A stretch of DNA of 64,000 bases from Candidatus Nanopelagicales bacterium (GTDB taxonomy: Bacteria; Actinomycetota; Actinomycetes; S36-B12; GCA-2699445): assembly GCA_046330625.1 (NCBI GenBank), contig JAXLSJ010000007.1, forward strand, positions 50,362 to 114,361. Direction: 5' to 3'. Of this stretch, positions 2,230 through 54,742 are shown piece after piece (positions within the stretch are counted from its first letter, which is position 1; every line of letters starts with the position of its first letter). Below the pieces are notes generated by a model. It was not told the DNA's origin. It saw nothing but the letters and a program-made list of their open reading frames with translations, and did not search any database. The position numbers and the translations under genes were made by a program.

Positions 2230-3285
2230 GTGTCCGTCACCCGCACCGCAGCTCTGTCCGTCGTCCTCGCGGCCACCACGTTCGCCGGGGTCTCCCCCGC
2301 GTCGGCCGCCCCCGATCCCGACCGTGGTCTGTTCGGGATCCAGGACCCCACCTACGACGGCGTCTACCGCCAGGGCCTGGCCATCACCGGGCTCGTCGCC
2401 GCCGACCGTAGGGTCCCCCGCTCCGCGGTGTCCTGGCTTCTGCGCCAGCAGTGTGCAGACGGGTCGTTCGTGTCGTACCGCCCCGACACCACGCTGCCGT
2501 GCCCGGCACCGGACCCCACCAACTACACCGGTCCGGACAGCAACTCCACGGCGATCGGGGCCATGGCGCTGCGCGCCACCGGCGACAAGGCCCATGCCCG
2601 CTCCGCCCTGCGCTACCTGCGGAAGATGCAGAACGACGACGGCGGATTCCCCTACTACCGAGGCGGGTCGAGCGACACCAACAGCACGGGGTTGGCCCTG
2701 GCTGCGCTGAACGGGTCGCGCGCGACCAAGTCGGTTCTGGCGCAGGTCAAGGACGCCACGCGGTACCTGGGTTCCGTGCAGTTCCGGTGCCAGGGGGCGG
2801 CAAGCGACCGCGGGATGATGTCCTACCAGCAGGCGCCGTTGACGGCGAACACGCTGGCGACTGCTCAAGCGGCGCTCGGCATGGTCACCACGCTTCCCAG
2901 TACCCCTCGTCCGACCCGTGTCTCGGGCGTGCGCTGTGTGGGGTCGCTGTCGACCAGGCCCGTGTCACCGGCAGGTGCGGCGTTGGCCGCCCTGCGGCGA
3001 CAACTGGCCGACGGACTGCTGCCCAGCGCGTTCGGGTCCGACGGCGACGCGTCGGCGACCGCCCAGGCGATCATCTCGCTGAAGGCTGCGGGAGTGCGCG
3101 GCCGCGACCTGCGTCCCGCCGTGCGGGCGCTGCGCCGGGTGGCCGCTACATACACGGTGGCCGGGGGTTCGACCGATGCCGGCGCCGTCGGCACATTGAT
3201 CCTGGCGGCGACGGCGACCGGCTCGGACCCGCGTGACTTCGGCGGCGTCGACCTGATCGCGGCCCGTCGGGCCAGCCGTCGATGA
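2230..3285 (+). CDS. secreted prenyltransferase/squalene-oxidase-repeat (terpenoid-cyclase-fold) protein
   Basis: GTG start, signal peptide MSVTRTAALSVVLAATTFAGVSPASA. Repeats of the QxxDGSF / QNDDGGFPY type (LLRQQCADGSFVSY, LRKMQNDDGGFPYYRGG). Confidence 0.7.
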   Translation: MSVTRTAALSVVLAATTFAGVSPASAAPDPDRGLFGIQDPTYDGVYRQGLAITGLVAADRRVPRSAVSWLLRQQCADGSFVSYRPDTTLPCPAPDPTNYTGPDSNSTAIGAMALRATGDKAHARSALRYLRKMQNDDGGFPYYRGGSSDTNSTGLALAALNGSRATKSVLAQVKDATRYLGSVQFRCQGAASDRGMMSYQQAPLTANTLATAQAALGMVTTLPSTPRPTRVSGVRCVGSLSTRPVSPAGAALAALRRQLADGLLPSAFGSDGDASATAQAIISLKAAGVRGRDLRPAVRALRRVAATYTVAGGSTDAGAVGTLILAATATGSDPRDFGGVDLIAARRASRR

Positions 3286-6873: not shown

Positions 6874-7919
6874 TGCGCGATGTCGACCAGGACGCCCGAG
6901 TTGCCGCGACCGCCCGGCTGGACCGCCTGACCAAGCCGCCTGGCGCACTGGGCCGACTCGAGGAACTGTCCGTCTGGGCGGCCGGGGTCCAGGGCCGCTG
7001 CCCGCCCTCGCGATTCGCCGCCGTGCACGTGGTCGTCGTGGCCGGCGATCACGGCATCGCCCGGAACGGCACCAGCGCCTATCCCCCTGAGGTGACCGCG
7101 CAGATGGTGGCCAACATCGTCGCAGGGGGCGCCGCAGTCAACGTCCTGGCGCGGGAACAGGGTGCGGACGTCACCGTGATCGACGCGTCGGTGGACTCGG
7201 ACTACGTGGGACTCGCCGTGCCCGAGGAGGTGGCCGCCCGACGGGTCCGTCGCAGCAGCGGCGCCATCGACCGCGAGGACGCGCTGACGCCCGACGAGGC
7301 GCGCGCCGCCCTCGAGCTCGGCGACACCGTCGCGGGCGAACGCGAGGCGGCCGGCGCCGACCTCGTGATCGTCGGCGACATGGGCATCGGCAACACCACC
7401 CCCGCCTCCGCCCTGATCGCGGCCCTGACTGACGGAGACCCTGTTGTGGTCACCGGGCGGGGCACCGGGATCGATGACGCCACCTGGATGCGGAAGGTCA
7501 CTGCTGTCCGCGACGCCCTGTGGCGCACCCGCGACGACCACACCGACGCGGCTCTGGCCCTGCAGCGTCTGGGTGGTGCCGACCTCGCCGTGATGACCGG
7601 CCTGCTGTCCGGATGCGCGCGGCGCGGGATCCCGGTCCTGCTCGACGGCGTCGTGGTCACGGCGGCAGCGTTGGCCGCGGAACGGATCGCACCGGGCTCG
7701 GTCGCGTGGTGGGCGGCGGGTCACCGGTCCGCGGAGCCCGCGCACGCAATCGCCCTGGCCGAACTGGGGCTGGACCCCGTCCTGTCGCTGTCGATGCGGC
7801 TGGGCGAGGGCTCCGGCGCCCTGACCGCGCTACCCGTCCTGCAGGCGGCCGTGGCTCTGCTGGCCGACATGGCCACCTTCGACTCCGCCGGCGTCTCCGG
7901 CGCCGTGGACGTCCCGTGA
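6873..7919 (+). CDS. cobT: nicotinate-nucleotide--dimethylbenzimidazole phosphoribosyltransferase
   Basis: ATG 6873 overlaps the cobU stop (TGATG). [48 protein letters not shown]. Confidence 0.92.
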
Positions 7920-8716
7920 CGTCCTGGACCTTGGCGCTCGGCCTCTTCACCGTGGCCCCGGTTGACACTCCCGCCGACCCACCGCGGTCACAGGTCCGAC
8001 GGGCCATCCTGCTTGCGCCCGTCGTGGGCCTTCTGCTCGGGCTGTGCGGAGCAGCGGTCCTGATCGGTGCTCGCGCCCTGTACTCACAACGGATCTTCGA
8101 CCAGCCGAACGACCCCCTGGCCCTGGCCTTGGCCTCGGTCTTCGCCATCGCCGCGGTGGAGATCGCCACGGGGGGACTGCATCTCGACGGCCTGTCGGAC
8201 TCCGCCGACGGTCTCGCCGCCCGAGGCGGACGGGACCGATCCCTCGACGCCATGCGCGACCCCCGGATCGGCGCGGTCGGAGCTGCGACGCTGATCCTCG
8301 CGCTGCTGGTGTCGGTGCTCGCCCTGGCACTGGCCGTCACCCGTGGGCATGGCACCGAGGCCATCACCACCTCCGTCGTGGCCGGTCGCGTGGCGATCGT
8401 CTGGGGCTGCACCTTGCCCGCCGCGCGGGCAGACGGCCTCGGCGTGTGGGTGAGCGGGGTGGTCGGGCGTCGCGCCGCCCTGCTCGAGACCGTGGCCGCA
8501 CTGGCTGTGCCGGCGGCGCTGTGCCTCTGGGACGACGACAGGTCCCGGTCGGCGACGGCTGTCGTGATGGCAGCCCTACCGCTCGCGCTGGTGGTCACTG
8601 CCGCCGTCCTGCTGCCGCTGTATCGACGGATCGGCGGGATCACCGGCGACCTGTTGGGAGCTGCCTGTGTGATCACCACCACAGCCTGTCTGGCCATCGT
8701 GGCCGCCGCCCCGTGA
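7916..8716 (+). CDS. cobS: adenosylcobinamide-GDP ribazoletransferase (cobalamin synthase)
   Basis: GTG 7916 overlaps the cobT stop (GTGA). Polytopic membrane protein with [11 protein letters not shown]..., [25 protein letters not shown] motifs. Confidence 0.87.
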
Positions 8717-9540: not shown

Positions 9541-9685
9541 CCCCAGGTGGGTACTTCGACGCTACTCCCCCGGGTCAGCCGGGACCAAGGCGACACATCG
9601 GGTCAAACTCCTGATCGGGATTGACTCCGCAGCGTGAGCGCACCTTCACTGATTGAGCTCCACGCGCCACCCCCTTGGAGGCACT

Positions 9686-11140
9686 ATGAAGAAGACACTC
9701 GCCATCGTCCTGGTGGGAATTCTGATGGCCCTGGTGGCGCCGGGCGCCGCCCGTGCCGCCGATCCGCCGATCGGCACCGCCTGGGCGGGCGTACAAGAGG
9801 GCAGCAGCATGCGCATTCAGTCGATCGCCACCAACGGGGCCGGCACGTGGGTGGCCATGACCGTGTTCCTAGGCCCGGGGACCCCCCAACGGAGCACCAA
9901 CAACGGCGTGACCTGGTCGGAAGCAGCAACCCCGCCACCTGTGGTGGACGGCACCAGCGACTACGCCTTCAACGACGTGGCCTGGTGCAATGACCGGTTC
10001 GTGGCCGTCGGGACGGCAATCGAGAACGACACCGCGCGGGCCGTGACCGCCTGGAGTCTCGACGGCAACACGTGGAGCACCGTTCTGCCCATCGGCAACG
10101 GCAGCACTGTGAATCCCAGCAGTCTCGCCTGCAACGGCAACAACGCGGTGGCCGTCGGTAGCGCCTTCGGGAGTGGCAACTACACAGTGATCACGAGTTC
10201 CGACGCTGGGGGGAGCTGGACGGCGACCACGGACTTCACCGGCTCTTTCGGGTACAGCTGGAGGGGTGTCACGTATCGCTCCGGCATCGGCTTCGTGGCA
10301 GTTCGCAGCGGCACCGGCACCGAGGACGTGATGATTTCCGATGACAACGGCGTGAACTGGACCGCCAATGACAGCGGCGTGAGTGGAAACTGGAGCGCAG
10401 CGGCGAACGACGGCACCACGATTGTGGCGGTGGCGGACGGGGGCACCAACCGCGTCATGACGTCGACGAACGGAGTCGACTGGACGGCTCGGACTGCCGC
10501 CGTCGACCTCTCCTGGAATGACGTCGCTTCTGGCAGCGGGACCTTCGTGGCAGTGGCATTGGACGGCACGTTCGACCAGCAGATCATGACGTCGACGAAC
10601 AGTGGCGCCAGCTGGACATCACGCCCGGCCCCCGCGGAGAACAACTGGGCCGCGGTCGGCTACGGCGCCGGTGGCGGTGGCGTGCCCGCGCGTTTCGTGG
10701 CCGGGGGCCGGGCATTCACCAGCACTCCGGAGGGAGTCAACTACCTGTACACCACACCCACCCCGACGGCACCGCTGGCGCCGGCCGTCGCGGTGGACGT
10801 CCTGAGTTGGACCACGCCCATCTGGGCCGCGACCAGTGGTCTCACCACCTACACCGTCGTGTACAAGAAGACCGCGGACGCCGGCAACCCGTCGGTCCCC
10901 TGGGGGGTGTACGCCCAGCGCACCACGGCATGGCCGGGCGGCGCCCTTCCCCTGAGCGTGAGGCTAAACGCCACTCCCGGCAACTGCGGCCTCACCAACA
11001 CCACGGCGGGGTGGACGAACTGCCCCATGCCCAGAGGCAACCTCCTCCCGGAGACGTCGTACACCTTCCGGGTGTTCGCCCGGTCGGCCACCAACCTCGG
11101 AACCATGTCGAGCCCGGTCACCTACATGGAGGTCGGCTGA
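9686..11140 (+). CDS. secreted BNR/Asp-box repeat beta-propeller protein with C-terminal FN3-like domain (paralog 1)
   Basis: ATG 9686 preceded by GGAGG. Signal peptide MKKTLAIVLVGILMALVAPGAARA. Repeated S-x-D-x-G-x-x-W boxes (STNNGVTWS, SLDGNTWS, SSDAGGSWT, SDDNGVNWT, STNGVDWT, STNSGASWT). Confidence 0.72.
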   Translation: MKKTLAIVLVGILMALVAPGAARAADPPIGTAWAGVQEGSSMRIQSIATNGAGTWVAMTVFLGPGTPQRSTNNGVTWSEAATPPPVVDGTSDYAFNDVAWCNDRFVAVGTAIENDTARAVTAWSLDGNTWSTVLPIGNGSTVNPSSLACNGNNAVAVGSAFGSGNYTVITSSDAGGSWTATTDFTGSFGYSWRGVTYRSGIGFVAVRSGTGTEDVMISDDNGVNWTANDSGVSGNWSAAANDGTTIVAVADGGTNRVMTSTNGVDWTARTAAVDLSWNDVASGSGTFVAVALDGTFDQQIMTSTNSGASWTSRPAPAENNWAAVGYGAGGGGVPARFVAGGRAFTSTPEGVNYLYTTPTPTAPLAPAVAVDVLSWTTPIWAATSGLTTYTVVYKKTADAGNPSVPWGVYAQRTTAWPGGALPLSVRLNATPGNCGLTNTTAGWTNCPMPRGNLLPETSYTFRVFARSATNLGTMSSPVTYMEVG

Positions 11141-11261
11141 CCTGGACCGACGGGCAGCGGGGACCAAGGCGACACATCGGGTCAAACCCCCAAGTGCGTT
11201 TGACTCCGTAGCGTAACCACATTTTCACTGAATGCGTTCAACGCGCGGGCCCGGAGGCACC

Positions 11262-12713
11262 ATGAAGAAGACACTGGCCATCGCCCTGGCGGCCATGCTG
11301 ACGGCAATGGTTGCCCCCGGCACCGCCCAGGCGGCCGATCCGCCGATCGGCACCGCCTGGGCGGGCGTGCAAGAGAGCGGCAACAAACGGATCTTGTCGG
11401 TCGCCACCAACGGGACCGGCACCTGGGTAGCCATCACCCTTGCCGGAGCTCCCGGGACCCCGCAGCGGAGCACCGACAATGGGGTGACCTGGACCACCGC
11501 AGCCACCCCGCCTCCCGTGGTGGAGCCCCAAACGACGGGCAATGCGTTCAACGACGTCGCTTGGTGCAATGACCGTTTCGTGGCCGTGGGGAAGGCATTC
11601 ACGGAAACCAGCGATGTCACCGTGACGGCCTGGAGCACCGACGGCAACACGTGGACCACAGTCCTTCCCACCGGTAACGCCAGCGGCGTGTCGCCCCAGG
11701 ACATCGCCTGCAACGGCAACAACGCCGTCGCCGTCGGCGGCGCCCTCGAGGGTGGCGACTACACGGTGCTCACCAGCTCCAACGCCGGGCTGAGCTGGGC
11801 GGGGCGCACGGACTTCACCGGCTCCCAAGGCTACGACTGGCGGGGAGTCACGTACCGGTCCGGCGTTGGCTTCGTGGCCGTTCGCGGCGGCACCGGCACC
11901 AATGATGTCATGATCTCGACCGACAATGGCGCGAACTGGACCGGCGACGACAGCGCTGTGAACGCAACGTGGAGCACTGTGACGAACGACGGCACCACCA
12001 TCGTCGCCGTCGCCGACGGTAGCCCCACCGACAACCGGGTCATGACCTCCACCGACGGAATCGCGTGGACGGCTCGAACCGCGGCCGCCAACATCTCGTG
12101 GAACGACATCGCGGCTGGTGGCGGGACTTTCGTGGCTGTCGCCTCGGGGGCAAACGCCGACACCCAGATCATGACGTCAACGGACAGTGGCGCCACCTGG
12201 ACATCACGCACAGCGGCAGCCAAGAACAACTGGAACGCGGTCGGATACGGTGGCTCGCCGTCACGGTTCGTAGCAGGGGGCAACACGTTCAACAGCATTC
12301 CCGCGAACGTCAACTACATGTACACCACTCCCACCCCCACGGCGCCGCAGTCCCCGTCCGTCGTGGACGAGACCCTGAGTTGGACCACACCCATCTGGAC
12401 CGCGACCAGCGGCCTCACCACCTACACCGTCGTCTACAAGAAGACAGTCGACGCCGGCAACCCGGCGGTCCCCTGGGGGGTGTACGCCCAGCGCACCACA
12501 GCATGGCCCGGCGGCACCCTTCCGCTGCAGGTTGAGCTCAACGCAACTCCGGGCAGTTGCGGCATCACCAACACCACGGCGGGATGGACGAACTGCCCCA
12601 TGCCCAGAGGCGCCCTGCTCCCGGACACGTCGTACACCTTCCGGGTGTTCGCCCGTTCGGCCACCAACCTCGGCACCATGTCGAGCCCCATCACCTACAC
12701 GATCATCGCCTGA
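11262..12713 (+). CDS. secreted BNR/Asp-box repeat beta-propeller protein with C-terminal FN3-like domain (paralog 2)
   Basis: ATG 11262 preceded by GGAGG. MKKTLAIALAAMLTAMVAPGTAQA. Same Asp-box series (STDNGVTWT, STDGNTWT, SSNAGLSWA, STDNGANWT, STDGIAWT, STDSGATWT). The C-terminal part is nearly identical to paralog 1. Confidence 0.72.
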   Translation: MKKTLAIALAAMLTAMVAPGTAQAADPPIGTAWAGVQESGNKRILSVATNGTGTWVAITLAGAPGTPQRSTDNGVTWTTAATPPPVVEPQTTGNAFNDVAWCNDRFVAVGKAFTETSDVTVTAWSTDGNTWTTVLPTGNASGVSPQDIACNGNNAVAVGGALEGGDYTVLTSSNAGLSWAGRTDFTGSQGYDWRGVTYRSGVGFVAVRGGTGTNDVMISTDNGANWTGDDSAVNATWSTVTNDGTTIVAVADGSPTDNRVMTSTDGIAWTARTAAANISWNDIAAGGGTFVAVASGANADTQIMTSTDSGATWTSRTAAAKNNWNAVGYGGSPSRFVAGGNTFNSIPANVNYMYTTPTPTAPQSPSVVDETLSWTTPIWTATSGLTTYTVVYKKTVDAGNPAVPWGVYAQRTTAWPGGTLPLQVELNATPGSCGITNTTAGWTNCPMPRGALLPDTSYTFRVFARSATNLGTMSSPITYTIIA

Positions 12714-12799
12714 CGGGTCGACGGAGTCCCAGAATCGGTCACTCCATGTCGCCGTGTGAACTACGCTTCAGGCCACGGAGCGGGGGCATGGAGGCATAC

Positions 12800-12940
12800 A
12801 TGGTCGACGCTGGTCATCGGGGCTGGGTGACGCCCCAATTGGTGGCGCTGGGCACGTCCCATCATTCACGCAATGCCTCAGCTCCGGGTGACTCCGTCGA
12901 CAGCACCTACAGCGAGGTCCCACAGGGCTACGTGTCCTGA
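12800..12940 (+). CDS. putative RiPP (lasso-like) precursor peptide, locus 1
   Basis: MVDAGHRGWVTPQLVALGTSHHSRNASAPGDSVDSTYSEVPQGYVS. GGAGG 5 nt upstream of ATG 12800; in-frame alternative starts at 12788 and 12746. Stop lies 8 nt before the AsnB-like gene. WVTPQLVALG fits the YxxPxLxxxG lasso leader pattern (W for Y). Confidence 0.4.
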   Translation: MVDAGHRGWVTPQLVALGTSHHSRNASAPGDSVDSTYSEVPQGYVS

Positions 12941-12948
12941 CATCGACC

Positions 12949-14703
12949 GTGGTGTTCGAATCCGTCACCATTCGCTGGCGCGCCGAGCGTCGCCTCGAGA
13001 TCATCAAGTTCCCTGGCGACAGATCCGACAGCCGACCGACCGACGGCGGCGTGGCCACGGGCGCCATCACGGAAGCCGAAGGCAACGTTGTCGTCGAGCA
13101 CTTATCGCACCATGATCATCCCGACGCAAACCTGCCCGACACCCCTTGGCTGGCGGTTGCGCAACGTGGGCACGGTGTCCTGGCTGCCGCCTGCTCGACG
13201 CTTCTGCCCAGTGGGATCTTCTGGGCCGCGACAGCGCATGGACTGCTGATCGCATCCGACCCCGGCGCGATCGTGACCCGCCTCCCCTCGCCACCCGCAC
13301 TGTCCGACGACTACCTGCGTGACTACCTGCTCAACGACTGCCCACCCGAGGCCACGCCCTATGAGGGGGTCCAACGGATCCCCGCGGGTCACACCGCAGT
13401 CTGGAACGATCCTTTCCGATCGCCGCAGCTCCACCCGTGGGTGGGGCCGGATCACTGGGACACCCCGCACCTCATGGGTCCGACCGCGGTCGAGGAGTAC
13501 CGTCGCGCCTTCGACCGGGCGGTCGCGACCCTCGGAAGCCGGACCTGACCTTTGATCACCCAGGTGTCCGGCGGGCTGGACTCGACCTTCGTGGCGGCAA
13601 CCCTCGCACGACAGACCACGCCCGACCGCCCCGTCATCGGACTGATCCATGTGCCGCTGGCCGAGGCCCAGCTGCAACCTCGGGGCGGCATGGACCCCGA
13701 CGAGTCTCACCTGGCACATACCCTCGCCGCCGCCTACCCGGGTCGGCTGGTGGTGCGGGAGGTGCGTAACGAGGAACTGATCTCACCGCTCGATGCGTCA
13801 GCCGAGATGTCCACCCGGTCGTGGCTCCCGGTCTTCAACCCGGCCAACCAATCCTGGATGACCGCCATGAACCGCATCGCCGCCCACGAAGGCGCCGAGT
13901 TGCTGTTCGCCGGTGGGAACGGAAATGCCGCCTTCAGCCATGACCATCCCTATGCCGCCCGTTACTACCTGTCCCGCGGGCGGTTGCCCACCTTGTTGTC
14001 GTTGGGCACGGTCGATGGTTCGCCGTCGATGTCGAGACTTCGGGGTCGGGTGTTGTCACCCCTACTGCCGCGGACCCCCCAGCCCCCGACCAGCGCCCAT
14101 CTGGGGCTGCCGCCGACTCCGCCACCCCGGCACGAGCACCCCCGAATCCACTACCTGCGCTGGCTCGCCCGCGCGAACAGCGGTTTGATGGCAGCGCAGA
14201 ATCCGGCCGCCACCGAAGGAATCCTCAAGGCCGACCCGTTTCTCGCCCGGGCTGTGTTGGACGTGGCGGCGGCGATCGAACCTGCGGAGTGGCAGCGCGG
14301 CGGTGGTTCCCGGAGTTTCGCGCGGCGCCTCGGCCTCGGCCGGGTTCCCGACGACATCAGGCTCCGGAAGCGACGCGGCGCGCAGGGCTGGGACGCCTGG
14401 TATGTGGTGCGCAACGACCGGGACCGGTACCTGGCCGAGATCGACCTGCTGCGCGACACCCCAGCCCTCGGCGGCTGGGTGGACGATCGGCGGCTCGCTG
14501 CGACCGTTGCGGCCTGGCCGTGGGGGGCAACTCACGGGCCGGGTCCGGGAGAACTCCACACCGTCCATCGTCTGCTGGCTCTGGCGGCGTTCGCCCGCGA
14601 TACGACTCGGCGGCTTGCGACGCTGACTTCCCAGCCCGTGGCGGAGTCGGGGGTGATAGCTTCTCGTCAGGTCGGCTCACTCGCCGGCCGCCGACGGGGG
14701 TGA
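12949..14703 (+). pseudogene. asparagine-synthetase-like / lasso-cyclase-like enzyme interrupted by an in-frame TGA
   Basis: Track ORFs 12949..13548 and 13552..14703 are in the same frame, separated only by TGA 13546..13548 (…ATLGSRT*PLITQVSGGLDSTFVAA…). SGGLDS is the AsnB-type PP-loop. The C-terminal region (DPFLARAVLDVAAAI...RKRRGAQGWD) is AsnB/lasso-cyclase-like. No N-terminal Cys2 glutaminase nucleophile. Confidence 0.65.
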
Positions 14704-20379: not shown

Positions 20380-21573
20380 TCACACCCCCGCCGCCACCAA
20401 CTCCGCGACATCATCCTCACGTCCGAACGACCCGGGCTCGTAGGAGCAGAGCGGATCGTCGGCGAACACGTCGTGACTGTCGCCGAACGCCCGGGGTCGG
20501 GAGCCGCCGCACACGGCCCGGAACTCGCACGACCCGCACCGACTGTGGGGGGCGTCCGGGTCCCGCAGCGACCGGAACAACTCCGAGTCGCGATAGATCG
20601 CGGCGAGCGAGTCGTCACCCACGTTGCCCGCCGACACCGGCAGGAACCCGCTGGGGTAGACGTCGCCGGTGTGGGACACGAACACGAACCCCCGGGCCGC
20701 GCTCACGCGCAACGGCGGTCGGCGCATGTGATCACGCTGTCGGCGCGGGGACAGCAGCGTGAGGCGACGGCTGAGCATCTGGTAATCGGTGCCGAGTCCC
20801 AGCTCGGCCACGGGGTCGAGGCCCTCGCGTTCGCACAGCACCCGCTGGATGCACACCCGGCGGAAGGACGGTGCCTCCGTGGTCTTCAAGGACACGATCT
20901 TGTCCGCGTCGTAGCAGAAGTGCAGGACGTCCTCGGCCTGCTGCGACGTCAGCTGCGCCAGATCGGCGCCCCGGCCTGTGGGAACCAGGAAGAACACCGA
21001 CCACGTCATGGCCCCGAGCCGGTCGACGGTGTTCACGATGTCGGGCAGCTGCTGCAGGTTCGCCGGGGTCACCGTGGTGTTGATCTGGACCTTCAAACCC
21101 AGGTCCCGCGCCGTGCGCCACCCGGCCATCGTGCGGCGGTGGCTGCCGCAGACACCCCGGAAGTCGTCGTGAGTCGCCGGGTCGGACCCGTCCAGGCTGA
21201 GCGATATGGCGTGGCAGCCCGCCTCACGCAGCCGGGTGAGGTTACGCCGGTCGAGGGCCTCGGTGCCCGACGGCGACACCGCCACGGGGAGGCCGATCTC
21301 GGCCCCGTACGCGACGAGCTCGAACAGGTCGGGTCGTTCGAAGGGATCGCCCCCGGTGATCACGAAGAACGGTGGCGGCGAGCCGAAGGCCAGCACCTGG
21401 TCCATGAGTCGCCGAGCCGCTGCACCGTCGAGTTCGGCCGGGTCGCGGTCCGGGACAGCGTGCGCCCGGCAGTGGCGGCACGCCAACTGACAGGCCCGCG
21501 TGGCCTCCCAGATGACGATGAACGGCCGCTGGGTCAGATCCAGATGGCTGCGCCGCAGCGCCCGGGCAGCCAT
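20380..21573 (-). CDS. radical SAM / SPASM domain protein
   Basis: CxxxCxxC cluster in WEATRACQLACRHCRA. C-terminal Cys-rich SPASM-like region (RCGSCEFRAVCGGSRPRAF...DPLCSY). N-terminus resembles AhbD/NirJ/PqqE-like maturases. Confidence 0.85.
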   Translation of the reverse strand: MAARALRRSHLDLTQRPFIVIWEATRACQLACRHCRAHAVPDRDPAELDGAAARRLMDQVLAFGSPPPFFVITGGDPFERPDLFELVAYGAEIGLPVAVSPSGTEALDRRNLTRLREAGCHAISLSLDGSDPATHDDFRGVCGSHRRTMAGWRTARDLGLKVQINTTVTPANLQQLPDIVNTVDRLGAMTWSVFFLVPTGRGADLAQLTSQQAEDVLHFCYDADKIVSLKTTEAPSFRRVCIQRVLCEREGLDPVAELGLGTDYQMLSRRLTLLSPRRQRDHMRRPPLRVSAARGFVFVSHTGDVYPSGFLPVSAGNVGDDSLAAIYRDSELFRSLRDPDAPHSRCGSCEFRAVCGGSRPRAFGDSHDVFADDPLCSYEPGSFGREDDVAELVAAGV

Positions 21574-21576
21574 GGT

Positions 21577-21870
21577 TCAGGCACGCACCAGCCGCAACCG
21601 CCATTCGTCGGGGCCGCGCTGCAGGTACTCCACCGCGAGTGCCCCGTCATAGCGGTCATGGGCCTGGGCGAGCAGGGGTTTCGGATCGTGGGGCGCCACC
21701 AGCACCAGCGCCGAACCGGGGGCGATGCTGTCCAGCGCCCCGAAGACGGCGCCGTGGCGCACGGCATGCGGGATCACCCGAGCATCGAAGACGGGATCGG
21801 CGGGCTCAGCCCCGCAGTTGCAGGAACAGCCGCCATTGGCCGCAGCGGCCAGAGGGAGATCAGGAGTCAT
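21577..21870 (-). CDS. DUF2249 domain protein with Cys-rich N-terminus
   Basis: Internal ATG 21870 gives MTPDLPLAAAANGGCSCNCGAEPADPVFDARVIPHAVRHGAVFGALDSIAPGSALVLVAPHDPKPLLAQ...GPDEWRLRLVRA (DUF2249-like HDPxPL, GPDxW). The 95-codon upstream extension of track ORF 21577..22155 overlaps the AsnB-like gene and was rejected. Confidence 0.7.
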   Translation of the reverse strand: MTPDLPLAAAANGGCSCNCGAEPADPVFDARVIPHAVRHGAVFGALDSIAPGSALVLVAPHDPKPLLAQAHDRYDGALAVEYLQRGPDEWRLRLVRA

Positions 21871-21946: not shown

Positions 21947-23452
21947 CTAGACCGAACGGGCGGATGTCCAGTAGAGGTCGAGCGGGGCAGCGATGTCGGC
22001 CAACTCGGGGTACATCGTGTGGATGAGGTCGGTGGTGGGAGGCCACTCGGGCAGATGGTGCCGAACCCGATCAGGCTCCGGCGCCTTCGTGACGAACTTC
22101 TGGGTGGGGACCAACTCGGCGAGGAGTTCCTGGAACAGCCACCGCGACTTGCCATCGCGACGGAAGACAGGGGGTGGCAGCGAACATGCCACCTCGATGA
22201 CTCGGCGATCCAGTAACGGGAATCGGTACTCGACCCCGAACTGTCGACCCATCAGCCACCATGCCGCGGTCCGCCGTTCCACATGACCGAGGTGCAGCAG
22301 CCGCGACTGTCGCTGGTGCGGAGGCTCGAGCAACCGGAACGTCCGACGCTTGGACCGGAACGCGGACCTGTTCACATCTCGCCACGCGCGATCCATGGCT
22401 GTCGCAGGTGGCCGAAGAACGCGCCACGCAGACCGGACCGGTCTCGCTCCCGCCCGCGCCAGCACCCGCCACTCGCCCGTCCCTCCCGCAGCCGCTTCCG
22501 CCTTCACCTGTTGCCATGCCTGACGGAACTCGCCCTGGCCCACCATCCACCCGAACGGCGGCGTGCCGCCCGCCGAGGCAGCCTCATCGCCACCCCACCC
22601 GGAGAGGATCGTCGTCACCCCGGCCTCACGCGCCCAGCCGAGGATCACGGTCTCGTACTGGACCATCGTGTGCAGCAGGAAGATCAAGGGATCGAGATGG
22701 GGATCTGACAGGGCCGCCCTCATATCTGCTTTGGTCACGCAGCGCATCCGAACTCCGAGCGCGGCACCGATGCGAATTGACCGGTCATGCTCGTCGGGCG
22801 AACCGTCGGGCGATCTCACGTCTGAAGCGATCCATCCGTAGCCGGCGGCCAAAGCCTGACCCTGGGAACCCAAGAGCCGCTGAGCTGCAGCAGCAACCAT
22901 GGTCGAGTCGAGCCCCCCGCTCAGGTGGGCCGCAACCGGTGCACCACCCGCCGAAGCCAGGGCGTCCGAGACAGCCGCCAACACGGCCGACCTCAGAAGC
23001 GACTTCGCTTGGGCCACCCCCATCGGCCGACGTTTGACCCGCCGACTGTCGAAGTATCGAGAAAGGCGCCGGGTCGTCCCCTCGAGGACCACGATGCTGC
23101 CCGGAGGAACCTGGAACACGCCATTGAATACAGTCCGTGCCGGATCGGCAGGGGCTTGCATGAACAGTCGTGCGGCATAGTCGTGGTCGAGGGTTCCGTC
23201 CCAGCAGGACTCTCGGACAGCACGCAGGTCGGCATCCACCCGGAGGCCACCGGTCGCCGACCATCCGTAGTAGAGCGGGACCACACCCATGGGGTCGCGC
23301 ACGAGGACCGCGCGAACACCGTCGCTCAGATGGGCAGCGAACTCCCCCACCAGCCCGCTGGTCCTGCCGGTCGCCAGAGCCTTCTGCAGGAACTCGACGG
23401 GATCCGCGTCCGACGCGGTCGACAGCCACCCCCAGAAGTCGTGACATCTCAT
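21947..23452 (-). CDS. asparagine-synthetase-like / lasso-cyclase-like enzyme (intact)
   Basis: 501 aa. RDPMGVVPLYY (AsnB N-domain), PP-loop AAHLSGGLDSTMVAAAA, SGWGGDE, C-terminal FPLLDRRVIEVACSLPP. Starts MRCHDF, so it lacks the MCG glutaminase N-terminus. Confidence 0.72.
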   Translation of the reverse strand: MRCHDFWGWLSTASDADPVEFLQKALATGRTSGLVGEFAAHLSDGVRAVLVRDPMGVVPLYYGWSATGGLRVDADLRAVRESCWDGTLDHDYAARLFMQAPADPARTVFNGVFQVPPGSIVVLEGTTRRLSRYFDSRRVKRRPMGVAQAKSLLRSAVLAAVSDALASAGGAPVAAHLSGGLDSTMVAAAAQRLLGSQGQALAAGYGWIASDVRSPDGSPDEHDRSIRIGAALGVRMRCVTKADMRAALSDPHLDPLIFLLHTMVQYETVILGWAREAGVTTILSGWGGDEAASAGGTPPFGWMVGQGEFRQAWQQVKAEAAAGGTGEWRVLARAGARPVRSAWRVLRPPATAMDRAWRDVNRSAFRSKRRTFRLLEPPHQRQSRLLHLGHVERRTAAWWLMGRQFGVEYRFPLLDRRVIEVACSLPPPVFRRDGKSRWLFQELLAELVPTQKFVTKAPEPDRVRHHLPEWPPTTDLIHTMYPELADIAAPLDLYWTSARSV

Positions 23453-23486: not shown

Positions 23487-23606
23487 CTAGGAGGACAAAA
23501 TACCGCCGATCGCTTCGGGGTCTAGCGCTTCGCCCCCTTCCGACGACGCACCGGAGCTGAGCGCTACGAGCTCCGGCCGTACCCAGGGCTCCTGCTGGGT
23601 CGACAT
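23487..23606 (-). CDS. putative RiPP (lasso-like) precursor peptide, locus 2
   Basis: Hand-translated 39-aa ORF absent from the track: MSTQQEPWVRPELVALSSGASSEGGEALDPEAIGGILSS, ATG 23606 to TAG 23487. Ends 34 nt upstream of the AsnB-like gene. Shares W-V-x-P-x-L-V-A-L with the locus 1 peptide. Confidence 0.45.
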   Translation of the reverse strand: MSTQQEPWVRPELVALSSGASSEGGEALDPEAIGGILSS

Positions 23607-23666
23607 GGCTGGGAATGTACACGCTGCTGGATCGTAGATGCGGAGATGCGTACGAACGGGCCAGTC

Positions 23667-24770
23667 TCAGGCGACGCGCATCATCCAGTTGTGCGGATCA
23701 GGCGCCACGCCGGTCTGGATGTCGAGCAGCGCACGTCGCAGTTGCTGGGTGACCGGACCGGACCCGCCGTCGGCCACCGTCCACTCCCCGCTGTGTGCCT
23801 TGACGTGACCGACCGGCGTGATCACCGCGGCCGTCCCGCACGCGAACACCTCGGTGATCTCGCCCGACTCGCAGCCCTTGCGCCAGTCCTCGACGCTGAT
23901 CCGGCCTTCCTCGACGTCGTAGCCGAGGTCGGCGCCCAGGGTGAGCAGCGAGTCGCGGGTGATGCCCGGCAGGAGGCTGCCCGTGAGCGACGGGGTCATC
24001 AGGCGGGCGCCCGGACCGCTCCCGTACACGAAGTACAGGTTCATGCCGCCCATCTCCTCGATCCAGCGATGCTCGTTGGCGTCGAGCCACACCACCTGGT
24101 CACAGCCGTGGTCGATGGCCTCGGCCTGCGCCAGCAGCGACGCGGCGTAGTTGCCGGCGCATTTCGCTTCGCCGGTGCCGCCGGGGGCTGCTCGCACGTA
24201 GTCCTCGCTGAGCCACACCGTGACCGGCTGCAGGCCGCCGGTGAAGTACGCCCCGGCCGGCGACGCGATCAGCAGGTACAGGTACTCGTCGCCGGGGCGC
24301 ACCCCGAGGCCGACCTCGGTCGAGAACATGAAGGGTCGCAGGTACAGCGACTTCTCGGGATCGGCAGGCACCCACGGACCGTCCTGCGCCAACAACGCCT
24401 TGATCGAGCCGAGGAAGAGTTCGTCGGGGAGCTCCGCCATGGCCAGGCGCGCCGCCGACCGGCGGAACCGCTCGGCGTTGGCCAGGGGGCGGAACGTGTA
24501 GATCCCCCCGTCGGAGTGCCGGTAGGCCTTGAGGCCTTCGAAGATGCTCTGGCCGTAGTGCAGCGAGTTGGTGGCCGGGTCCAGCTGCAGCGGTCCGTAG
24601 GGCTCGACGGCCGCGTCGTGCCAGCCCTTGTCCTGCATCCAGCGCAGTCGCACCATGTGGTCGGTGAACACGTTGCCGAACCCGGGGTCGGCGAGGATCA
24701 TCTCGCGTTCGTTCGCGGGCAGCGGCGCGGGGTTGGGCCGCAGTGGGAACAGCGGCGGCGTCTCCGTCAT
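23667..24770 (-). CDS. ilvE: branched-chain amino acid aminotransferase
   Basis: FTDHMV...[14 protein letters not shown]..., [15 protein letters not shown], about 367 aa actinobacterial IlvE type. Confidence 0.92.
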
Positions 24771-54436: not shown

Positions 54437-54742
54437 GCCGCTTCCGTCGTGGTGCTCCCTGGATTGTGCTCCCTTCCGGAGGGCAACGAGCAACGGCAAA
54501 CGTTTGCCTTTCGGATCCCGTCCCGGGCGTGCCGATGCCAGGGACAGACTGACCGCGTCCGGGACCGCCCGGCAGCACACCTGGGAGGGGCCCATGCGGC
54601 AATCCACCTCCGGAGCCACCGCCCCATCCGTTCTCTGGTCGACCCCTCGACTGACCCTGATGGTGGCAGGCGGCCGCGCCGAGAACGGTGGCAGCAGCCG
54701 CGCCACCGACGGCGGCAGCGCGAGCTACGGGAGTTGACGGCG

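Follow-up and report, generated by a model that had tools for sequence, protein, structure and literature searches.

A 39-codon precursor peptide gene paired with a shortened lasso-cyclase-like enzyme in Candidatus Nanopelagicales

The small gene and its counterparts in related loci

The stretch of DNA analyzed here (the window) comprises 64,000 nucleotides of contig JAXLSJ010000007.1 from Candidatus Nanopelagicales bacterium, and its minus strand carries, in this order, ilvE, a small open reading frame (ORF), an Asn-synthase-like gene, a DUF2249 gene, a TIGR04053 radical SAM/SPASM gene, and the genes for citramalate synthase and an EamA transporter. The small ORF is the subject of this report. 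It occupies 23487..23606, running from an ATG at 23606 to a TAG at 23487-23489, and its 39 codons translate as MSTQQEPWVRPELVALSSGASSEGGEALDPEAIGGILSS. It is located directly after ilvE (24770..23667, minus strand) and ends 34 nt before the ATG, at 23452, of the gene for an Asn-synthase/lasso-cyclase-like enzyme of 501 aa (21947..23452, minus strand). Although not called as a gene in the existing annotation of the source genome, the ORF had been singled out as a possible lasso-peptide precursor in an initial annotation made from the sequence, whose account of its start and stop, translation, 34-nt gap, upstream TACATT hexamer and missing Shine-Dalgarno sequence (SD) was found to be correct in every detail.

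As the window DNA is about 69% GC and another frame of the same 214-nt spacer is fully open, with no stop anywhere, 39 open codons alone prove little. Long open frames are frequent in the window, and a chance ORF in GC-rich intergenic DNA could look much the same. A leave-one-out profile, built solely from the peptides of other loci, spoke against this: the window ORF ranked first of 1,135 six-frame segments (all those of at least 20 aa in the window), with an E-value of 1.7e-5 for a profile of seven peptides, 9.3e-7 for twelve, and 1.2e-4 when the peptide of locus L164 was withheld (P numbers denote proteins of relatives; L numbers denote loci of the relatives' enzyme genes or control and metagenome loci). 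This profile replaced an earlier one made from regex-collected control peptides, which was too noisy and gave the window ORF an E-value of 0.35. Furthermore, each of the nine relatives' loci whose flanks were usable has a small ORF of the same plan no more than about 300 nt from the enzyme gene, one of these ORFs being cut by a contig end. The GC content at third codon positions (GC3) was 0.775 for the small ORF and 0.767 for the enzyme gene, unlike that of the core genes (0.89-0.93 in ilvE, cimA, leuB, gltX, the EamA gene and the radical SAM gene), and the pair therefore looks like one imported unit. Given the top profile rank, the homologous ORF in every usable locus and the GC3 match to the enzyme gene, the 39-codon ORF was determined to be a genuine and conserved precursor-peptide gene, and an origin by chance, already counted as refuted, is left with a negligible probability. 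The coupling of the peptide gene to the enzyme clade was likewise shown.

The peptide plan common to these loci consists of a W-x-x-P-x-L leader, a small-residue junction 16 residues past the Trp, and an acidic residue at core position 8 or 9, the last being present throughout the clade. Trp and Pro were invariant in the alignment of seven peptides (A4), and a C-terminal Ser was found in six of the eight core-clade peptides. Enzyme and peptide co-vary: the nearest enzyme, P0121 (46% identical to the window enzyme), carries the nearest peptide, MTEPDSAPWISPSLVGIRAAEDAAAGLANVPEVSDGLLSS, at L164, with a core (AGLANVPEVSDGLLSS) that resembles the window core in its 16 residues, its Pro7-Glu8 and its G(I/L)LSS end. 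The L164 peptide gene is convergent to the enzyme gene, as are those of L001 (enzyme P0002; MASSEQGTWCAPKITSLIDTTSAEVGPNPGIPEDSSMNGS, called as a gene), L166 (P0123; MDAKESWTAPRLNHLIESDESAGGPNSETAEDAFFRSTPPS) and L006 (MATKLWETPGLRPILPIEDSEGGFKPTPKEEKLGNPSG). In the remaining clade loci the peptide gene lies upstream of the enzyme gene, namely in L167 (P0124; MVTEPKQSWASPMLTPLATQKDTAGGAEPSPEASAGLLS), in L036, where the peptide ends in ...WTTPTLTALATQLEVAGGGEIFTVENQSYQPRPSP, and in L165 (P0122), where the contig end leaves a partial peptide, ...TPELVRIVDGTQIKSGATRDINEEGLKNPS. Five peptide copies accompany the sister-type, P0125-like enzyme of L004 (WGLX01000006.1). These are tandem or dispersed precursor ORFs at 4.7-13.4 kb, with the pattern W-x-x-P-x-[LIVM]-x-x-L followed by a junction of AE or AQ before SG or GG; the same locus also encodes two HPr-kinase homologues (one fused to a sulfotransferase), two A-T-TE proteins and an ABC transporter.

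The window peptide can be divided on this plan into a putative leader of residues 1-23 (MSTQQEPWVRPELVALSSGASSE; 23538..23606, minus strand) and a putative 16-residue core (GGEALDPEAIGGILSS; 23490..23537, minus strand). The leader contains W8-x-x-P11-x-L13 within the recognition motif W8-V-R-P-E-L-V-A-L16 (23559..23585, minus strand). Because of homology and the fixed 16-residue spacing from Trp8 to the junction, the predicted core start is Gly24 and Glu31 becomes core Glu8, so that cleavage would occur at SSE/GG, with the amine of Gly1 and the carboxylate of Glu8 as the putative ring-closing residues. The same Trp-for-Tyr leader motif, with a spacing of 15 or 16 residues from Trp to junction, was seen in canonical control precursors, for example ...WQKPELRSVVPAARTR/GGGGDINDADDIFYDAS and ...WQAPKMIKLNVKDTK/GGFFTAETEGQFDFFFGS, and the paeninodin peptide model NF033524 aligned one control peptide precisely through WEAPELLVL. 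Among the canonical precursors, 79/103 had Thr at position -2 (offset 13 or 14 from the Trp) and 80/103 a C-terminal Ser. At -2 the window peptide has Ser22; the clade otherwise has Ser or Ala, Thr being kept only in L167. A passage in PMC10368454 describes Thr(-2) as a recognition residue in leader cleavage, to which exceptions exist, such as Ile at -2. The initial reading of the peptide thus held up well: its W-x-x-P-x-L motif does occur in paeninodin-type precursors beside related cyclases, its core start and Glu8 agree with the family spacing (Pro7-Glu8 recurring in the nearest homologue), and the Ser that it noted in place of Thr is typical of the clade.

The NCBIfam and Pfam models gave no match to the window peptide even at an E-value of 10, although the same models also miss most positive controls, and NF033524 does not match it. 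An alignment-based peptide search of a set of 5.8 billion proteins recovered only two family members as predicted proteins, both nameless; the peptide family is unannotated.

The enzyme clade and its missing partners

The neighboring enzyme contains an Asn_synthase domain and a partial GATase_7 domain, with the PP-loop SGGLDS at residues 178-183 (22904..22921, minus strand), the ATP-pyrophosphatase motif of the synthetase domain. The N-terminal Cys nucleophile is not present, and the enzyme starts with MRCHDFWGW, which the clade does not conserve. When scored against curated models, it reached 108 bits for AsnB (TIGR01536, cut-off 267), 82 for the lasso cyclase (NF033535, cut-off 525) and 60 for the albusnodin type (NF033561, cut-off 300), the TIGR01536 match beginning at profile position 118. 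The best word-based match among 5.8 billion proteins was P0002, just 32% identical. The matches below it were proteins of 560-630 aa for which the lasso-cyclase model was the top-scoring one (190-350 bits). The two whose surroundings were looked up lie in lasso clusters, that of P0003 encoding PqqD, Transglut_core3 and an ABC transporter, and that of P0009 an HPr kinase, NTP_transf_5 and an ABC transporter. When 1.84 billion representatives were searched exhaustively with a profile, a clade at 300-437 bits stood apart from the plateau of ordinary cyclases near 200. P0121, P0122, P0123 and P0124 (486-544 aa), together with P0002, P0127 and the window enzyme, form this small actinobacterial clade. 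A metagenome scan returned canonical cyclases almost exclusively, with one additional clade member, L117, whose peptide region was lost at a contig end.

In a neighbor-joining tree the clade, including P0127, was monophyletic and P0125 was its sister, and both stood beside canonical cyclases. The clade descends from lasso cyclases, and its sister group is the paeninodin-type lasso cyclases. S-G-G-x-D-S (with Leu or Ile as the fourth residue), SGWGGD and YR-x-PLLD were invariant in all eight clade members, which are 28-46% identical to the window enzyme; its own versions are SGGLDS and LSGWGGDE, and its adenylation motifs are intact. The PP-loop lies at residue 178 in the window enzyme and at residues 177-214 in the clade, whereas its median position in 175 canonical cyclases is 263; the N-domain is therefore shorter by about 85 residues in the window enzyme and by 49-86 across the clade. 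The initial annotation was right that the nearest larger family is that of the lasso cyclases and not housekeeping AsnB, but the lasso-cyclase cut-off is missed by a wide interval; it had also overlooked this failure, the shortened N-domain, and the missing genes described below.

A different ATP-dependent amide chemistry could be envisaged for such an enzyme, for instance amidation of Glu, Asp or the C-terminus or ligation to another amine, with the leader retained or otherwise used. Identity between the window enzyme and true cyclases is about 30%, the AsnB model gives it a slightly better score than the lasso model does, no peptidase is encoded to free the core N-terminus, and the C-terminal Ser is widely kept in the peptides. 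The nearest solved structures by sequence are AsnB, a hydroxyamidotransferase, beta-lactam synthetase and CarA, no lasso cyclase being detectable by sequence in the PDB. The missing glutaminase nucleophile and truncated N-domain, however, speak against this, the conserved features of the peptide are those of a lasso substrate (a small-residue junction with an acid 8 or 9 residues later), and the clade nests beside cyclases and not beside amidotransferases. A changed chemistry of this kind is considered improbable.

Custom hidden Markov models (HMMs) for B1, B2, the kinase and the nucleotidyltransferase were built from canonical loci (n = 158), of which 105 had a match to B1 (RRE), 75 to B2, 112 to the HPr kinase and 31 to the NTP transferase. 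No match to B1, B2 or HPr kinase was obtained with these models in the window, L001, L006, L036, L117 or L164-L167, and the NTP transferase was found, among the window and clade loci, only in L167, as an NTP_transf_5 gene about 3 kb from the enzyme gene. Pfam searches of 94 plausible small and medium ORFs of the window likewise revealed no PqqD and no Transglut_core3, and neither B1 nor B2 was present within 13.4 kb in L004. The sensitivity of the B2 HMM was adequate, as it detected an actinobacterial B2 in L169 at 1e-17. By custom HMMs and Pfam, the module is therefore without B1, B2, kinase or transporter within the 64-kb window.

It is conceivable that a canonical lasso pathway survives in pieces, with B1 and B2 encoded elsewhere in the genome to bind and cut the W-x-x-P-x-L leader. 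That leader motif is clearly selected, with Trp and Pro invariant, and nearly identical motifs in a second, unrelated module of the window (WVTPQLVAL; described below) and in L169 (WVRPELVVL) would fit a shared reader acting in trans. The second enzyme family retains B2 in L169, and the view taken here is limited to 64 kb of the genome. However, neither B1 nor B2 was found nearby in any of about ten clade loci, as against roughly two thirds of canonical loci; Thr(-2), the cleavage-recognition residue of the passage cited above (PMC10368454), has been lost in the clade; and the cyclase has a shortened N-domain, a trait of triculamin biosynthesis, which is proven to work without B proteins. A pathway dispersed in this way is regarded as unlikely, if less so than a change of chemistry.

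The closest parallels were sought among three groups of known systems. Canonical lasso features of the window module are the leader motif, the small core residue 1 (Gly1), and a Glu8 that falls within positions 7-9. As B1, B2 and Thr(-2) were looked for and not found, the module was not assigned to the canonical pathway. The paeninodin/pseudomycoidin type (PMC6993621, PMC5067487) nevertheless comes near in many respects, being the sister enzyme clade with SGWGGD and YR-x-PLLD in common, and having alike the Trp-for-Tyr leader, the Trp-to-junction spacing, the Gly-rich junction, the acid at position 8 or 9, and the C-terminal Ser. PsmC and PsmA, like the proposed window module, close the ring without B1 or B2 (PMC6993621). 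Paeninodin clusters, in contrast, encode B1, B2, a kinase, a nucleotidyltransferase and an ABC exporter and conserve Thr(-2), whereas the window clade is without these genes and has Thr(-2) replaced. The HPr-kinase homologue of the paeninodin type phosphorylates the C-terminal Ser (PMC6993621), and this subfamily pairs the Ser with the kinase; the window has the Ser but no kinase or NTP transferase.

The triculamin biosynthetic gene cluster of Streptomyces triculaminicus (triA/triC/triT/triD; PMC12070363) shares with the window module an actinobacterial origin, the absence of B1 and B2, and a macrocyclase missing part of its N-terminal domain, and its minimal functional unit, precursor and macrocyclase, likewise amounts to two genes (PMC12070363). 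Its precursor, however, has a follower and no leader (PMC12070363), while the window peptide has a conserved 23-residue leader and no follower; TriC is short by about 150-250 residues and the window enzyme by about 85; the triculamin core is cationic with a PGDG motif and the window core acidic and hydrophobic; and triculamin has an acetyltransferase, whereas the window module is without acetyltransferase or transporter. The window enzyme scored just 60 bits on the albusnodin-type model and was compared with TriC through the published description. On account of its leader, its different core and the lack of a follower, the module was not placed in the triculamin type. Housekeeping AsnB has the Asn_synthase fold and PP-loop in common with the window enzyme, which differs in having neither the Cys nucleophile nor a full glutaminase domain, in falling below the TIGR01536 cut-off, and in always being paired with a peptide gene. 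Beta-lactam synthetase and CarA, at about 500 aa, are similar in size to the window enzyme and also catalyze intramolecular amide formation. On these comparisons, the clade is best described as a B-less, shortened-cyclase lineage derived from paeninodin-type clusters that has retained the leader.

Neighboring genes, expression signals and further motif-bearing ORFs

The enzyme gene is followed by a DUF2249 gene (21870..21577, minus strand) and the TIGR04053 radical SAM/SPASM gene (21573..20380, minus strand), whose nearest characterized relative is the heme b synthase AhbD. The DUF2249 stop overlaps the radical SAM ATG (ATGA), indicating translational coupling, and GC3 is island-like (0.79) in the former and core-like (0.89) in the latter. 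The pair was in none of the other clade loci. A role of the radical SAM protein as a peptide maturase was rejected, as it is AhbD-like, coupled to DUF2249, core-like in GC3, and missing from the other clade loci. No additional gene was consistently linked across the clade loci, whose neighbors differ: 2-oxoglutarate (2OG)-Fe(II) oxygenase genes stand directly before the peptide gene in L036 (362..1069) and L167 (4071..4760), a GNAT gene lies upstream of it in L006, and an ABC ATPase gene occurs in L164, compared with DUF2249 and radical SAM in the window. The oxygenases and the GNAT are possible lineage-specific tailoring enzymes.

No purine-rich SD was found ahead of the small ORF, and a -10-like hexamer, TACATT (23614..23619, minus strand), lies 7 nt upstream of its ATG, making a leaderless transcript a candidate. 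A TANNNT element 6-7 nt before the ATG was present in three of seven complete loci, as TACATT in the window and, at a distance of 6 nt, as TACAGT in L164 and TAGCCT in L006, while the L001 peptide gene has a clear GGAGG in place of TANNNT. Scans of 21-25 kb for the sigma-70 consensus, promoters and terminators, and with Rfam, gave no match, the sigma-70 scan being unable to see leaderless-type promoters of the TANNNT kind. Leaderless expression, as first suggested for the window gene, thus has moderate support and may apply to some clade members.

A second precursor-like ORF, MEAYMVDAGHRGWVTPQLVALGTSHHSRNASAPGDSVDSTYSEVPQGYVS, was found on the plus strand at 12788..12940, with the leader motif WVTPQLVAL and a terminal Ser. 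An SD-like GGAG stands upstream of this ORF, which takes up a 235-nt gap. Directly after it comes another Asn-synthase-like gene (12949..14703, plus strand), whose product is 26% identical to the first enzyme over 146 residues. The reading frame of this gene is interrupted by a TGA at 13546-13548, immediately ahead of the SGGLDS motif. At that site its roughly 30 intact relatives from actinobacteria, with identities of 37-73%, mostly show Gly or another small residue, and since the nearest, P0265, is among those with Gly, a single-base change from GGA to TGA is suggested; the gene is either a pseudogene or the site of a sequencing error. Loci of this second family carry the same type of peptide (L169, 765..899 and 2335..2469; L171, 1801..1926 and 7849..7965; L168, about 4620), one example being MAPDLQPWVRPELVVLAGSADARNNISGTGDVDATYSGFPYGYS, whose leader almost matches that of the window peptide. 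They also retain accessory genes, namely Transglut_core3 in L169 and an HPr kinase, NTP_transf_5 and a sulfotransferase in L171, and a PqqD-type B1 was detected in none of L168, L169 and L171. Upstream of the second ORF are tandem paralogues (9653..11140 and 11232..12713, plus strand) that are 72% identical to each other. Their products, about 495 aa long, carry a signal peptide and a weakly fn3-like C-terminus and belong to no Pfam family. The peptide genes of L168 and L169 are also preceded by a homologue (62% identical in L168; about 34% over the C-terminal part in L169), and this secreted protein may be a conserved partner of the second cluster type that has been duplicated in the window.

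A third motif-bearing ORF, MRQSTSGATAPSVLWSTPRLTLMVAGGRAENGGSSRATDGGSASYGS (54594..54737, plus strand), also has the leader motif and a C-terminal Ser, and sits in the gap between a divergent LacI-type regulator gene and that of a secreted CarboxypepD_reg protein. It scored an E-value of 8e-4 with the 12-peptide profile and about 0.5 with the core profile, and has no Asn-synthase-like neighbor.

The state of the second module bears on whether the first could be the decaying remnant of a lasso cluster that now makes nothing. With the accessory genes all gone, the enzyme shortened, no SD, and another module of the same window interrupted at 13546-13548 (GGA to TGA), such decay might be suspected. 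The shortened enzyme is, however, intact with invariant motifs in eight members that are no more than 46% identical to that of the window, a peptide ORF is intact beside the enzyme at each locus with usable flank, and enzyme and peptide co-vary. Intact enzymes and peptides across diverged members, together with this co-variation, point to purifying selection on the pair, and a dead remnant is judged very improbable. Both a changed chemistry and a dead remnant are thus the less likely explanations.

A proposed pathway and its implications

Given its similarity to the systems above, the pair may be a two-gene, B-independent lasso-type module that makes a 16-residue peptide with a Gly1-Glu8 macrolactam, and this reading is held to be probable, if only just. 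The module would have been acquired as a small island between ilvE and the DUF2249/radical SAM pair, and the 39-aa peptide would be translated, possibly from a leaderless mRNA, with a 23-residue leader bearing the W-x-x-P-x-L motif of paeninodin-type precursors. The leader would be cut at SSE/GG by a protease outside the module, either a housekeeping or an unlinked enzyme, after which the adjacent ATP-dependent enzyme of the Asn-synthase fold would adenylate the Glu8 side chain and join it to the alpha-amine of Gly1. The predicted product has 16 residues, with an 8-residue macrolactam ring and the 8-residue tail AIGGILSS, and could take either form, with the tail threaded (a true lasso) or as a branched-cyclic peptide. 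A macrolactam peptide may fairly be inferred, whereas the label of a threaded lasso goes beyond the evidence.

Precedents in pseudomycoidin and triculamin make such a B-independent route credible. PsmC and PsmA alone were reported to yield an Ala1-Glu9 macrolactam in Escherichia coli and Bacillus subtilis, psmCAD without B1 and B2 still formed the macrolactam, and the core gene with psmC was also enough (PMC6993621), while triculamin is made from a precursor, an N-terminally truncated macrocyclase and an acetyltransferase, without an RRE or peptidase (PMC12070363). Several points weigh against the proposed module. The product is predicted from the genes alone, none having been observed so far, and the enzyme passes no curated cut-off (82 against 525 bits for the lasso model and 108 against 267 for AsnB). 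The Glu lies at core position 8 in the window but at position 9 in most clade members, and the core tail offers just Ile and Leu as plugs for an 8-residue ring; unmodified pseudomycoidin was itself not threaded (PMC6993621). The leader is conserved, yet no leader-binding protein is encoded in the 64 kb, and a partner may lie beyond the window. The nonsense mutation in the second, unrelated peptide/Asn-synthase pair indicates that such modules do decay in this genome, and the sample comprised about ten loci, several of them on short contigs.

As the leader is strongly conserved, something presumably still reads it, and the only co-conserved candidate for this would be the enzyme itself. A more specific and tentative proposal, which we hold more doubtful than likely, is that the clade is a naturally B-independent but leader-dependent lasso-type system, in which the shortened cyclase would read W-x-x-P-x-L in place of the RRE, and the leader would be removed by a general cellular protease or after cyclization-competent binding. 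If this were true, at least two joint losses of B1/B2 and the N-terminal segment of the cyclase would have occurred, one in this clade and one in triculamin, which would link the function of that segment to the B proteins.

Lasso biosynthesis is usually said to require an RRE, a leader peptidase and a cyclase. Triculamin, in 2025, was reported as the first exception to the RRE and peptidase requirement, which it sidesteps through a leaderless precursor (PMC12070363). The clade described here retains a canonical leader, yet is without its reader and cutter, Thr(-2), and part of the cyclase N-domain, which raises two questions: what role the cyclase N-domain plays, and whether a leader can be used by a cyclase without an RRE. 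Genome-mining tools that demand B genes or Thr(-2) will overlook this peptide family, and so small a cyclase would offer a compact means of producing macrolactam peptides.

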